Positions 46,439-51,277 of a stretch of DNA of 51,843 bases are shown one piece after another. Made by a program: the position numbers and the translations under genes. Each line of letters opens with the position of its first letter. Positions within the stretch are counted from its first letter, which is position 1. Below the pieces are notes generated by a model. That model saw nothing but the letters and a program-made list of their open reading frames with translations. It was not told the DNA's origin and did not search any database. Source of the stretch: an uncultured Prevotella sp. (GTDB lineage Bacteria; Bacteroidota; Bacteroidia; Bacteroidales; Bacteroidaceae); the NCBI GenBank assembly GCA_900765465.1, contig CAAFRM010000366.1, positions 1 to 51,843 of the forward strand, given 5' to 3'.

Positions 46439-46594
46439 TTTAGGTCACGCAGATTTCGCAGATTACGCAGATTTTGAGACCTATGCGGTCTATGAATAGT
46501 CCCCTAGCCCGAACAGGGCAAAAAAAATCTGCGTCATCTGCGAAATCTGCGTGACCTAAATTTCCCCCAGCCCGAACAGGGCAAAAGAAATCTG
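46439..46594. repeat. Composite inverted/direct repeat element (REP/MITE-like)
   Basis: 37-bp arms (46439-46475 and 46524-46560) with 1 mismatch; 31-bp direct repeat CCCC(T/C)AGCCCGAACAGGGCAAAA(A/G)AAATCTG at 46501 and 46564. Confidence 0.85.
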
Positions 46595-46601
46595 TGAGCC
46601 C

Positions 46602-46871
46602 CTATACCTTATCCCCAAACGATGCACGGATAAGTTTCTCTCTAATATCCGGATAAACATCTTCTGAAAAATAGCCTTTCAAGCCATCCACGATTCTCAC
46701 GTAAATAGCGTGGTTATACACTTCCTTACCTTTTCTGACTCCCGTAAGGTACTTTGGACCCAGCTGAATGTTGGCTGCGAACTCTGCGCAGTTAATCTCA
46801 TTGTCATGCATGATCTGGCGCAATGTTTTGCCAAATAAATGCATGTCAATGTCAATTTTACTTTTGTACAT
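46602..46871 (-). CDS. Small XRE/Cro-like HTH protein
   Basis: FGKTLRQIMHDNEINCAEFAANIQLGPKYLTGVRKG fits the XRE HTH pattern; divergent from the primase gene. Confidence 0.6.
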   Translation of the reverse strand: MYKSKIDIDMHLFGKTLRQIMHDNEINCAEFAANIQLGPKYLTGVRKGKEVYNHAIYVRIVDGLKGYFSEDVYPDIREKLIRASFGDKV

Positions 46872-47045: not shown

Positions 47046-49160
47046 ATGATAAAAATGAAGCAACTAGTATCACAATTCGCAAACATGACCAGCAAGACTC
47101 CCATACTGGGAGACCTCGAAAGCCTGGTTTCATTTATGAAAACCGATGAGAGACTCAAGTTCCTCACCCAATCCTACCGCCAAACCGGCAAGAAAACCTT
47201 TAAGGCAGATGCGCCCCTCTTTGCCCCAGCCTGCCACCTCGAAGGAGGCAAGGGCCAGGACAACATCCGGGAACTCACCCACCTATCTCTCGTAGATTTC
47301 GATGAGCTCTTCCCCGAAGTGCCTCCCGATATCACGGCTCTCAACGCCCTGAAGCAGAAGCTCTGCGCCGATCCGCACACCCTACTCTGCTACATCACGA
47401 TGAGCGGCAACGGTATCCGAGTCATCTATCCCTATCTCGGAGATGACTACCCCGCCGCCTTCGCCAAGGGCAATGACTACTATCAGCAGCTCATTGGCAA
47501 AAAAGCTGACTTTCAATGCAAGAACGTCAACCGGCTCAGTGGACTCGCCTACGATCCCGATGCATACTACAATTCCGATGCTATCTCTTTCTCAGCCGAA
47601 GAAATCTCCCTATTCCATACCGAGACAACTAAGAAGAATCAGAAACAGAAGAAACTGGAACACATCAACACCTACTACGAGCAACTCATCAAGCCGAAAC
47701 TAGACAACGACAAGATTATTTATCAGCCAAACAAACACAATAACTATGTGATGAGAGTGGGCTATATGCTCGCCAGGAAGCGCTATGCCCATACCAACGT
47801 TCTGGAATGGGCACTCCAGAAATATCCCGAATACGACGGCGTGGAGCAGGTCATCAAGTCCTGCTACGACAACACCCCCGGTGCCTCCAGAAAGGCATCT
47901 GGAGGAGGCGGAAATGGCGGCAGTGACAACCGCTTCGCATCGGTCGATGAAATCAGAAATTTTCTCGATGGTCATATCCGTCTCCGATACAATCTCATCA
48001 CGCAGCGATACGAGTTTCTGGAAATCCCAGAAGGCGCCTCTCTATCTTCCGACAAGCCGCCACGATGGCAGATACTCCTCGACCGTCACGTCAACTCGCT
48101 CTGGACCAAGATGTCGCTCACGGTGAAGGTAAATAAGTTGGATATGCGCAATGTCATCGAGAGCGATTATACGCCCGTATTCAATCCCTTCGAGGATTAT
48201 TTCGCCCATCTCCCGCCCTGGAAGGAGGGCGACAAGGACTACATCGCCGAACTCGCTGCCACCGTGAAGGTGAAGGATACCGACAGCTCCGTGCTGAGCT
48301 TCGAGGAATGCCTGAAAAAGTGGCTCGTGGCAATGATTGCAGGTTGGCTGGACGAAGAGGCGGTCAACAATGTCATCCTGGTCTATATCGGAAAACAGGG
48401 TGCCAACAAGACCACCTGGTTCAATCATCTCCTTCCGCTGGAGCTGAAGCAGTACTTCTACACGAAGACTAATGCCAAGCGAATGACGAAGGATGACCTC
48501 ATCGCCCTCTCGCAGTACGCCCTCATCTGCTGCGAGGAGCTGGATACGATGTCGGCATCAGAGATGAACCAGCTGAAGGCTGCGGTGACGATGCAGTATA
48601 TCAACGAGCGAGCTGCCTATGCCCACTATGCCGAGCAGCGCAAGCACATCAACAGTTTCTGCGGCACGGGCAACAATCCTGAGTTTCTGAACGATCCTAC
48701 GGGTACCCGCCGCTGGCTGCCTTTCGAGGTAGAGAGCATCGTCTCCCCCCGCCAGCATCCCTTCAATCATCCCGGCATCTATGCCCAGGCTTACGCCCTC
48801 TACAAGAGCGGCTACCGCTACTGGTTTACGGATGAAGAGATAGAGCGGCAGAACCGGCACAACAGCAAATTCGAGACGCCACGCCTCGAACAGGAACTGG
48901 TGGATCTCTACTTCCGGAAGCCTTCGGAGGGAGAGACAGGGGAGTTTGTGTCCGTTGCCCGGGCGATGCAGATCATCGGCTGCAACATCACTCAGAAGCT
49001 GAGCAGCCAGAAGATTGGCAAGGCATTCAGCGACCTGGATTTCAAGAGGTTTCGCAATACAAGATGCCGTGGTTTCATCGCCATCATCCGTACGGCTGAA
49101 GAGATCAGAAACTATCAGATTTCCCTGGGAATCGATGCCAGCAGCAACCTTCCGTTCTGA
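47046..49160 (+). CDS. VirE/VapE-type primase-helicase (BT4734-like N-domain plus P-loop ATPase)
   Basis: N-terminal LVDFDEL, TMSGNGIRV and DFQCKNVNRL (prim-pol-like); Walker A variant GKQGANKTT, Walker B ICCEEL, GTGN, DPTGTRRW; winged-helix-like C-terminus. Confidence 0.82.
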   Translation: MIKMKQLVSQFANMTSKTPILGDLESLVSFMKTDERLKFLTQSYRQTGKKTFKADAPLFAPACHLEGGKGQDNIRELTHLSLVDFDELFPEVPPDITALNALKQKLCADPHTLLCYITMSGNGIRVIYPYLGDDYPAAFAKGNDYYQQLIGKKADFQCKNVNRLSGLAYDPDAYYNSDAISFSAEEISLFHTETTKKNQKQKKLEHINTYYEQLIKPKLDNDKIIYQPNKHNNYVMRVGYMLARKRYAHTNVLEWALQKYPEYDGVEQVIKSCYDNTPGASRKASGGGGNGGSDNRFASVDEIRNFLDGHIRLRYNLITQRYEFLEIPEGASLSSDKPPRWQILLDRHVNSLWTKMSLTVKVNKLDMRNVIESDYTPVFNPFEDYFAHLPPWKEGDKDYIAELAATVKVKDTDSSVLSFEECLKKWLVAMIAGWLDEEAVNNVILVYIGKQGANKTTWFNHLLPLELKQYFYTKTNAKRMTKDDLIALSQYALICCEELDTMSASEMNQLKAAVTMQYINERAAYAHYAEQRKHINSFCGTGNNPEFLNDPTGTRRWLPFEVESIVSPRQHPFNHPGIYAQAYALYKSGYRYWFTDEEIERQNRHNSKFETPRLEQELVDLYFRKPSEGETGEFVSVARAMQIIGCNITQKLSSQKIGKAFSDLDFKRFRNTRCRGFIAIIRTAEEIRNYQISLGIDASSNLPF

Positions 49161-49167
49161 TGCCGTT

Positions 49168-49311
49168 TATGACACTATGACACTTATGACACTTGTTTTC
49201 TAAAACTTTCCTCACGCGGGCGGGCAGGAAAAATTTTCCAGAAAGGCCTCCCGCCCGCCTACGTGAGAGAGATTTCAAGAAAAGCCTGTCATAAGTGTCA
49301 TAAGTGTCATA
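49168..49311. repeat. ~145-bp imperfect palindrome with triple TATGACAC at each end
   Basis: Left arm TATGACACTATGACACTTATGACAC...CTCACGCGGGCGGGCAGG; right arm reverse complement TATGACACTTATGACACTTATGACAG...CTCACGTAGGCGGGCGGGAGG. Confidence 0.88.
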
Positions 49312-49330: not shown

Positions 49331-49418
49331 GCATCCTAAGTAAGTCACTCAGGCATCCTAAGCAAGTCACTTACAGCTCGTAAGTAAGTCACTTAGGCAT
49401 CGTAAACAAGTCACTTTT
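49331..49418. repeat. Four 22-bp direct repeats (iteron-like)
   Basis: GCATCCTAAGTAAGTCACTCAG / GCATCCTAAGCAAGTCACTTAC / AGCTCGTAAGTAAGTCACTTAG / GCATCGTAAACAAGTCACTTTT. Confidence 0.9.
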
Positions 49419-49642: not shown

Positions 49643-49680
49643 GAAGAAAATCATTCTTCCGGGCTTATCTTCAGAAAAAG

Positions 49681-49730
49681 ACGTGAAAATCAGTGAGAAA
49701 CCGTGAGTAAACGTGAGAAACCGTGAATGG
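49681..49730 (+). repeat. Five 10-bp tandem units with a GTGA core
   Basis: GTGA at 49683, 49693, 49703, 49713 and 49723, just upstream of the TATCTTTG promoter box at 49747-49754. Confidence 0.85.
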
Positions 49731-49827
49731 CGGATTCTGAATGTTGTATCTTTGCATTGTGATTCAGAAAGAACCACGGGCAATGCGCAGCGCCGATTAA
49801 CTTTAATAATTTAACCATTTAAACGTT

Positions 49828-50427
49828 ATGATCAGAATTGTCTTATACCAGAACACGAACCAGAAGATTGCCGAAGCTTACGGCAAATGGTTTCCACGAG
49901 TAGTATCCGATGAAACCATCGGACTCGAAGAGCTCGCCGCTCACATGGCTAGCCACAACACCCCTTACAGCAAGGGTGCCATCCTCGGTATGCTGACCGA
50001 TGCAGCAGCCTGCACCAAGGAGTTGCTCCTCTTGGGTAAGAATGTGAAGTTTGCCGACATCGCCATTTTCTCCCTCGGACTGAAGGTGAAGGGCGGTGCA
50101 CCTACCAAGGAGAACTACAACGTGGCGAAGTACATTTTGGGGCTGAAGTTGAGAGCCAGAGCCACTGGCGAGCTCAAGACCGAGAATCTTGACACCTCTA
50201 TCAAGCTCATCAATCTGGCAGCTCCTGCAACGGAGAATCCGGGGAATTCGGAGAATCCGGATGATGCCGGCAAGGACAACCCATCAGGTGGTGGCAGCCA
50301 GACTACCGGAGGTGGTGGTGGCAGCCAGACTGGTGGCGGTGGCAACACCGATAACACCCAGCAGGGTGGCGGCGGAACCACGGATAGCGGTTCTACAGAA
50401 GAAGGTGGCGACAACGTAAATTTTTAG
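49828..50427 (+). CDS. HU/IHF-like (HU-HIG type) DNA-binding protein with Gly-rich tail
   Basis: YGKWFPR, IGLEELAAHMASHNTPYSKGAI, LLLGKNVKFADIAIFSL; disordered acidic G/S/T tail. Confidence 0.82.
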   Translation: MIRIVLYQNTNQKIAEAYGKWFPRVVSDETIGLEELAAHMASHNTPYSKGAILGMLTDAAACTKELLLLGKNVKFADIAIFSLGLKVKGGAPTKENYNVAKYILGLKLRARATGELKTENLDTSIKLINLAAPATENPGNSENPDDAGKDNPSGGGSQTTGGGGGSQTGGGGNTDNTQQGGGGTTDSGSTEEGGDNVNF

Positions 50428-50598
50428 CCGAGAATCGTAAAATCTGAAAGAAGGGAGCCGTATGGCGTCAGGGGCATTCCGAGAGCATCAAGAGGCAGGA
50501 ATCATCTGCAACATTCATCAAAAGCAAGCTCTGCACGGGTGCCTGGGTTATAGGGGTTCATTCTTAGGATATCTCCCTGGTTATGAACTTTTTAGTTG

Positions 50599-50664
50599 AA
50601 TCAAGTTTTAGTAAATCAAGTATTAGTAAAGTCAATTTTTAGTAAATCAATTTTTAGTAAATCA
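50599..50664. repeat. 15-bp tandem repeat x4
   Basis: AATCAAGTTTTAGTA, AATCAAGTATTAGTA, AAGTCAATTTTTAGTA, AATCAATTTTTAGTA. Confidence 0.85.
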
Positions 50665-50671
50665 TCAGACC

Positions 50672-50770
50672 ATGAGAAAAGAAACCATCAAGAAGATCAT
50701 CAATCTTATCATCACAGTACTTACCGCCATCGCTTCTGCCGTCTGCGTGCAGAGCTGCAAGGGATTGTAA
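50672..50770 (+). CDS. Smalltalk family peptide (32 aa; below the ORF-track cutoff)
   Basis: MRKETIKKIINLIITVLTAIASAVCVQSCKGL: basic N-terminus, hydrophobic helix and VQSC end; lies between the HU-like gene and the amidase. Confidence 0.85.
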   Translation: MRKETIKKIINLIITVLTAIASAVCVQSCKGL

Positions 50771-50827: not shown

Positions 50828-50842
50828 TAACAAGAGTTGCCT

Positions 50843-51277
50843 ATGATCAAGAACAGAAAGATCAATTTAATCGTCATCCACTGCAGTGCCACCCGAGTCA
50901 CCCAGGACTTCACGGTAGGCGAATTGGAGGCGTGTCATTTAGCCCGTGGTTTCCGTGACATCGGTTATCACTATTACATCACGAAGGACGGAGTGATTTA
51001 TCCGTGCCGTCCGGAGTCGGAGCCTGGCGCTCATGCCCGTCATTACAACGCCCACAGCATCGGCATCTGTTACGAGGGTGGTCTGGATGCCGAAGCCCGT
51101 CCTGCCGACACCCGCACGCCAGCCCAGAAGGCTGCGATGAGAGAGCTTCTGAAGAGCCTCTGTACCGACTATCCTGAAGCCGAGATCCTGGGTCATAGAG
51201 ATCTCCCTGGCGTTCACAAGGAGTGTCCATGTTTCGATGTCAAGAAGTGGCTTTCCAACATCCATTTCCACATATAA
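50843..51277 (+). CDS. N-acetylmuramoyl-L-alanine amidase (Amidase_2, T7 lysozyme-like)
   Basis: IVIHCSAT, IGYHYYI, GAHARHYN, SIGICYEGG, GHRD and KECPCFD; no signal peptide. Confidence 0.92.
   Translation: MIKNRKINLIVIHCSATRVTQDFTVGELEACHLARGFRDIGYHYYITKDGVIYPCRPESEPGAHARHYNAHSIGICYEGGLDAEARPADTRTPAQKAAMRELLKSLCTDYPEAEILGHRDLPGVHKECPCFDVKKWLSNIHFHI

Follow-up and report, generated by a model that had tools for sequence, protein, structure and literature searches.

We conclude that the large palindrome directly behind a primase-helicase gene in a 51,843-nucleotide window of a Segatella-like genome (G000, in which the window is contig C366) is likely the array that the upstream enzyme binds as its cognate site, and probably also serves it as replication origin, arranged in the manner of SaPI origins and carried by a Bacteroidales cassette that lacks an integrase.

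The palindrome begins 7 bp past the stop codon, as the initial annotation had it (Table 1). Inspection of the sequence also bears out three repeats per arm, with TATGACA at 49168, 49176 and 49185 and the complement TGTCATA at 49287, 49296 and 49305, the inner right copy being TATGACAG, not TATGACAC. The CTCACG element and GC clamp ascribed to the arms are likewise present, CTCACG at 49211 pairing with CGTGAG at 49262 and GCGGGCGGG at 49216 with CCCGCCCGC at 49250, and 49176-49194 pairs perfectly with 49293-49311 over 19 bp. The centre, which contains GGAAAAATTTTCC at 49227, is not the AT-rich segment it had been taken for: GC content is 51% over 49194-49286 and 40% in the loop (49225-49249), and the A/T-rich stretches sit instead just inside each repeat array (24% and 37% GC). 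The palindrome folds as DNA at -43.7 kcal/mol (z -9.08), a value equalled by none of 200 shuffles. Its length alone is little proof of function, because long inverted repeats are common in this genome: G000, which is 60% complete, holds 23 with perfect arms of at least 19 bp lying 40-150 nt apart, many of them REP-like. The view that this is no simple terminator agrees with our searches, in which no terminator of the intrinsic type, a short GC stem with a T run behind it, was called on either strand of the palindrome, and Rfam returned no family at gathering level, only sub-threshold miRNA-like hairpin matches. The 22-bp direct repeats beyond the palindrome, absent from the initial annotation, may be an operator for the DUF4248 gene or may belong to the origin as its second part; in 28 of 75 representative loci the palindrome is likewise trailed by a 22-bp periodicity, with differing sequence.

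Table 1. Features of the cassette in the window, with related sites elsewhere in G000 and in relatives (the last two lines).
Feature	Position	Strand	Basis or remark
Divergent 89-aa ORF, upstream	46602..46871	-	Conserved beside homologs; no family match
704-aa primase-helicase	47046..49160	+	Pfam PF08800 E 1e-24, PF05272 E 5e-33
BT4734-like primase domain	aa 52-175		
VapE/VirE ATPase domain	aa 420-610		
Predicted C-terminal winged helix	aa 614-681; 48885..49088	+	DSSP of model
Stop codon TGA	49158-49160		Palindrome start 49168, 7 bp on
Palindrome, 144-bp inverted repeat	49168..49311		Sequence inspection
Left array, three TATGACAC repeats, candidate iterons	49168..49193	+	Spacing 8 and 9 bp
Left A/T tract, candidate local melting site	49194..49210		24% GC
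GC-rich inner inverted repeat	49211..49267		25-nt loop; contains GCAGGA
Right A/T-rich tract	49268..49285		37% GC over 49268-49286
Right array, three inverted TATGACA(C/G) repeats, candidate iterons	49286..49311	-	Spacing 9 bp
Four 22-bp direct repeats, core AAGTCACT	49334..49416	+	3' of palindrome
DUF4248 protein, 69 aa	49433..49642	+	Pfam PF14053 E 2e-26
HU-HIG family protein, glycine-rich tail	49828..50427	+	Pfam PF18291 E 2e-8
'Smalltalk' 32-aa peptide	50672..50770	+	NCBIfam NF033879 E 4e-9, above cut-off
N-acetylmuramoyl-L-alanine amidase	50837..51277	+	Pfam PF01510; PHROG amidase/endolysin families
Gene-less palindrome copies (L233-L241)	G520:C1:627450, 2587980; G242:C1:830835, 2276687; G521:C1:778741; G186:C1:754855		
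REP-like inverted triple 9-mers in G000	C28:2639, C15:492, C165:532, C222:2615, C336:4129, C358:5441, C160 near 150		Same class as 46439-46560

The 704-aa protein matches helicase/primase families in PHROG, and its nearest named homolog, from Segatella copri, is 96% identical. An AlphaFold (AF2) model covering aa 305-704, with a mean pLDDT of 72 and block means of 74-90 across most of the C-terminal domain, predicts a winged helix whose wing is a beta-hairpin (aa 667-681; DSSP strands 667-670 and 675-681) with a variable tip, N671-T672-R673-C674; the codons for R639 and R670 lie at 48960 and 49053. The best fold match of the model is SaPI1 PriRep1 7PDS (Foldseek E 4e-9; Z 13.2, rmsd 5.1, 344 aligned), and the winged-helix matches, which fall on model residues 301-396, are to RFX5 (Z 7.2), RFX (Z 6.0) and the Fur and PadR families (Z 6-7). 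Judged by the catalytic motifs of AEP primases (hhhDhD, sxH, hD/E), the primase domain has the DxD motif (LVDFD, aa 82) and SGNGxR in the motif II region. The third metal-ligand position, where D is expected in active primases, is N in 41 of 43 rows (CKNxxRL), and priming is therefore uncertain.

A like array follows most of the homologous genes: opposed short-repeat arrays stand at the gene end, some overlapping it, in 80 of the 103 homologous loci that had enough downstream DNA (110 loci in all), with scores beyond the 99th percentile set by 1,500 randomly placed genome windows. These 80 include the window itself, two duplicate pairs and a few wrong-motif calls (L028, L036, L072/L082), and several array-negative loci show degenerate arrays by eye. 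The arrays persist down to 28-36% protein identity and their letters vary widely (TATGAC, GGTGAC, TGGCAA, GGACAG, GATACA, GGAACA), both arms always being alike. Inner repeats are 98-108 bp apart in 31/42 full-length forms and 68-83 bp apart in 26/33 short forms. Most of the homolog cores listed have a T/A tract at the place of the left tract, and GCAGGA or a close variant occurs in 32/42 primase-bearing representatives versus 4/26 of those with no primase-domain match. The latter 26, which have room for the domain and include rumen homologs (e.g. L037, L042, L046, L050, L079), have shorter cores, with a median of 68 versus 95 nt. Across the order, distant VapE homologs (L198-L219, L100-L108) also show by eye multiple opposed short repeats behind the gene, such as TACTACA, TTACAAT and CTTACCAC, in a layout closer to that of the multi-iteron SaPI.

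The repeat letters co-vary with the C-terminal domain. Of an initial 190 loci, 181 came with sufficient DNA and 161 of these entered the analysis; 14 (spurious calls, duplicates and members of a distant helicase-only subfamily) were taken out manually and the rest for low or no score; one further locus was dropped for its short protein, and clustering at 97% left 75 representatives. A scan of 177 variable columns, with eight long-branch rows dropped and correction for both the helicase tree and winged-helix distance, linked residue 670 to repeat position -1 (partial r 0.93; next column 0.38, sd 0.16), residue 639 to position 0 (r 0.72) and residue 672 to position -3 (r 0.35, sd 0.07). Over the 75 rows, R670 goes with TG in 46/48, K670 with GG in 12/13 and T670 with A in 11/12; within the TG types, K672 goes with GG in 14/15 and T672 with TA in 7/7. 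From these sequence patterns we infer a residue-to-base code.

The switch recurs in two paralogous loci, each having both a TKHS/GGTGAC allele and a (N/T)T-x-x/TATGAC allele. Wing and both arms agree in 92 of 97 loci at these two sites, the other five being mosaics and the rows close kin; three truncated loci and one without a wing call were set aside from this count. Flanks and inner spacer are locus-specific (96-99% identity within, 67-69% between), and therefore no contiguous block moved between the two loci; a very short conversion tract at the wing codons is possible. Elsewhere, near-identical helicases carry swapped domain-plus-array modules, and the pairs L038/L076 and L060/L061 combine close helicases (dS 0.25 and 0.32) with distant winged helices (dS 1.23 and 1.31).

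The wing codons and the array are only about 100 bp apart and move together, and because of this linkage the counts above are inflated. Sign tests on independent pairs, underpowered at 4-7 pairs each, gave p values of 0.06, 0.06, 0.25 and 0.06 in a first set and 0.031, 0.125 and 0.0625 in a second, with the opposite direction almost never seen; the winged helix taken by itself gave a tree with too little resolution for a parsimony test. A hold-out set of 116 new loci contained 71 that were distinct and less than 90% identical to the training domains, of which 48 had an array and 23 had none. There the three-residue rule for position 670 was right in 30/38, versus 27/38 for always guessing T. 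The informative pairings held up: T670 with A in 6/9 versus 1/39; R670-T671 with TGAC in 10/10 versus 10/38; and RTK with GGTGAC in 3/3, one of these at 39% identity to its nearest training domain. The link to residue 639 was looser. The cognate origin first proposed in the initial annotation is supported, the co-variation test set there having come out as predicted, except for the 'meltable AT-rich core', which is not supported in this copy.

All of the co-variation fits binding alone, and the foremost rival to a working origin is a site bound by the adjacent protein that no longer fires, acting as an operator, a roadblock or a recombination/repair anchor in a domesticated cassette. The cassette is indeed sedentary: 24 of 31 close loci share one upstream flank, and downstream flanks fall into 16 different groups among 34 close loci. 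The nearest PF00589 (tyrosine recombinase) match lies at least 112 kb from the gene-linked copy in four near-complete relatives, the window's contig has none, and no serine recombinase was found near the cassette. These fixed places, the lack of a nearby integrase, the N in the third primase motif and the persistence of gene-less copies would all suit a site that has ceased to fire. Against this, purifying selection acts on the helicase (dN/dS about 0.04-0.18 in nine pairs), which is intact in 38/42 and 49/50 loci and retains its Walker motifs, and the conserved spacing of the two arrays suits helicase loading more than a simple operator. We consider a silent site distinctly unlikely.

Searches for free or mobile forms of the cassette were negative within their scope. 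The viral collection held no relative, by protein or by alignment; 47 plasmid records were all below 60% identity (22-40% among the matches listed), with no close relative; none of 195 phage records spanned 80% of the primase-helicase; and no circular joint was found among those listed for four contig sets. Contig depths for helicase and upstream gene in three isolate runs were 66/56, 127/91 and 22/27, which are inconsistent, are not copy numbers and so give no sign of amplification; no RNA run on record contained the sequence. Two related species have the upstream efflux gene with no cassette behind it; because the DNA after the efflux gene differs, no clean empty site or att repeat could be defined. 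A genus search around G021 found no genome besides G021 itself.

The variable neighbours at gene-linked and gene-less sites (L223-L228, L362, L366) include YhcG/DUF1016, RhuM, Abi_2, McrBC, AAA_21 and PIN genes, a cytosine methyltransferase with Vsr, and polysaccharide genes, and the surroundings look like a defence and capsule hot spot. Within the cassette, 9-14-bp short repeats and a putative promoter region occupy 49669-49760, upstream of the HU gene (part of this stretch recurs elsewhere in G000 and in one gene-less copy), and four AT-rich direct repeats of 15-16 bp precede the smalltalk gene (50592-50668). Elsewhere in G000 (C369:16102-17223; C185, C186, C202, C219 and C261) lie a second, distant VirE gene (25%), four more DUF4248 paralogs and four amidase paralogs. 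At G520:C1:272700-276100 (L364, L365), the HU and amidase genes behind a second, divergent helicase paralog (about 45-55%) are 95-96% identical to those of the window, which points to module exchange between paralogous cassettes.

The geometry of the arms bears on a second rival, in which the functional form is a cruciform or single-strand hairpin, acting as a strand-switch site or primase signal, with the arms held complementary for the sake of pairing and not as double-strand binding sites. Arms mirror each other's spacing in 22 of 34 loci (15% expected), mirror copies are slightly more alike than non-mirror copies (6.72 versus 6.45 of 8, p 0.014), and in three gene-less copies the central loop is inverted relative to the gene-linked copy. 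The same mirror symmetry is also expected from a two-fold protein complex or from arm-to-arm copying, and pairing does not explain why letters follow wing residues. Many homologs moreover have an unpaired, AT-rich core: core GC ranges from 0.17 to 0.55 across primase-bearing homologs, and the inner stem reaches at least 8 bp in 27/42 primase-bearing representatives and is shorter in 15/42, where therefore pairing could involve only the short repeats, across about 95 nt. The G-T and A-C mismatches between arms show no bias towards G-T (28 versus 21). Fixed spacing with a free core sequence would be easier to reconcile with proteins assembled on double-stranded DNA than with a hairpin of RNA or DNA, and we regard the pairing explanation as very unlikely.

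A second matching contig in one isolate run prompted a search for palindromes without the gene. Copies of the palindrome with its 22-bp repeats were found in four of five near-complete genomes (none in G208), at 0-2 per relative (Table 1). Three of them (L234, L237, L241), those with the inverted loop, keep a remnant of winged-helix coding sequence, and the repeat type of gene-less copies does not always equal the resident wing type (G186). Separately, 46439-46560 in the window has a 3+3 layout of REP-like inverted triple 9-mers of other sequence with no helicase gene adjoining. That the palindrome is a dispersed REP/MITE-like element, or an RNA hairpin or terminator, lying after the gene by chance could draw on these REP-like sites (also C28, C160 and C165) and on the gene-less copies, and is largely refuted by the co-variation. 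The single copy in the 60%-complete G000, the few gene-less copies, several of them with 3' gene remnants, the fixed place at the gene end down to about 28% protein identity, and the missing terminator calls, Rfam family and G-T bias also speak against it, leaving it highly improbable.

We suggest that the likely cognate array works as SaPI origins do. By analogy with SaPI PriRep5, the protein would act as a hexamer that reads three repeats, 8-9 bp apart, by inserting the wings of its C-terminal winged helices into the major groove. Each arm may load one such hexamer, the two standing about 100 bp apart; the strands would first part at the A/T tracts just inside the arrays, and priming would fall to the primase domain. 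In the putative code, residue 670 would read position -1 (R to T, K to G, T to A) and residue 672 positions -3/-2 (K to GG, T to TA), with residue 639 influencing position 0. The winged-helix end of the gene and the array, within about 400 bp, pass from one helicase backbone to another as a single specificity module, and the mirroring of the arms, compatible with a two-fold complex or with copying from arm to arm, could account for the joint switching of all six repeats. A bolder version, which we hold tentatively and think fairly unlikely, is that an integrase-less, chromosome-anchored replicon, made up of primase-helicase, origin, small DNA-binding genes, peptide and amidase, fires in place, amplifying or reshuffling neighbouring defence and capsule loci, with its specificity changed by swapping 400 bp of wing plus origin under a near one-residue-one-base code, and with gene-less origins at other chromosomal places served in trans.

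BT4734/VirE genes occur in 68 of 150 family-level genomes and are often multi-copy in Bacteroidales. The analysis gives such a self-loading helicase a candidate target site and a recognition code testable at the level of residues, for which the natural allele pairs, differing almost only in wing tip and repeats, are at hand. It also prompts the question why an origin-like module should be conserved at fixed hot spots of the chromosome in the absence of an integrase. If the cassettes replicate, a family of mutually orthogonal replicons for gut Bacteroidales would be possible.

Among known systems, the alpha protein of phage P4 is a single primase-helicase with its own origin-binding domain, which reads short direct and inverted repeats (the ori/crr iterons); P4 has a DnaG-type primase and is a packaged satellite with an integrase. 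The cassette is alpha-like in pairing one primase-helicase with its own repeats, and P4's second, separate repeat cluster recalls the gene-less copies; the DnaG-type primase, the packaging and the integrase set P4 apart.

AEP replicases of mobile elements combine a VirE ATPase with a C-terminal winged helix, and these primase-helicases share the domain order of the cassette protein (PMC5862659). Its authors speculate that recognition of the cognate origin falls to the winged helix, by way of recognition helix and wing; the available text mentions the BT4734-like family a single time, among AEP families left unplaced, and gives neither an origin sequence nor a residue-to-base code for it. Such genes are merely listed in tables in the accessible part of PMC10434189. 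In the full-text literature, with subscription papers largely outside its coverage, we found no description of the origin or cassette, and no paper on the DNA target of BT4734/VirE genes. The HU gene of the cassette belongs to the HU-HIG family expanded in Bacteroidetes, for which the portion of the source available describes almost no conserved gene linkage and proposes a role in defence (PMC5499826); in contrast to that near-absence of linkage, an HU-HIG gene is linked to the primase-helicase cassette in many of our loci.

The closest parallel is with the SaPIs. Their origins follow rep directly, and the opposed iterons in them are recognised by a self-loading hexamer through its C-terminal winged helix (PMC9371898); in PriRep5 three neighbouring subunits bind 7-bp iterons separated by 2 bp, the wing enters the major groove, wing mutants lose binding, and short AT-rich stretches between iterons are the proposed melting points (bioRxiv 10.64898/2026.10.17.759575). 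The cassette shares with SaPI1 Rep1 (PDB 7PDS) and SaPI5 PriRep5 an origin position behind the helicase gene and opposed short repeats, at least two on each side; with the SaPI Rep proteins it further shares, on the model, an SF3-like ATPase followed by a predicted C-terminal winged helix, and three repeats at about 9-bp pitch (L2-L4 in PriRep5). Its iterons are matched to the C-terminal domain by co-variation, for which independent-pair support is weak, and the co-varying residues map to the wing, the element that PriRep5 uses. An integrase at the element end, a feature of SaPI/PICI elements, was not found, and because of this the cassette is not shown to be a member of that class. The array is also smaller, measuring about 145 bp and having 3+3 repeats where SaPI origins have about 300 bp and 6-12 repeats, and its core in this copy is a GC-rich hairpin in place of the long AT-rich centre of SaPI. 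Unlike SaPI, it has a BT4734-like primase domain, fixed chromosomal sites, and DUF4248, HU-HIG, smalltalk and amidase genes as neighbours. The class of mechanism is already known from SaPIs; its new aspect here is a chromosomal cassette at fixed sites with no integrase nearby.
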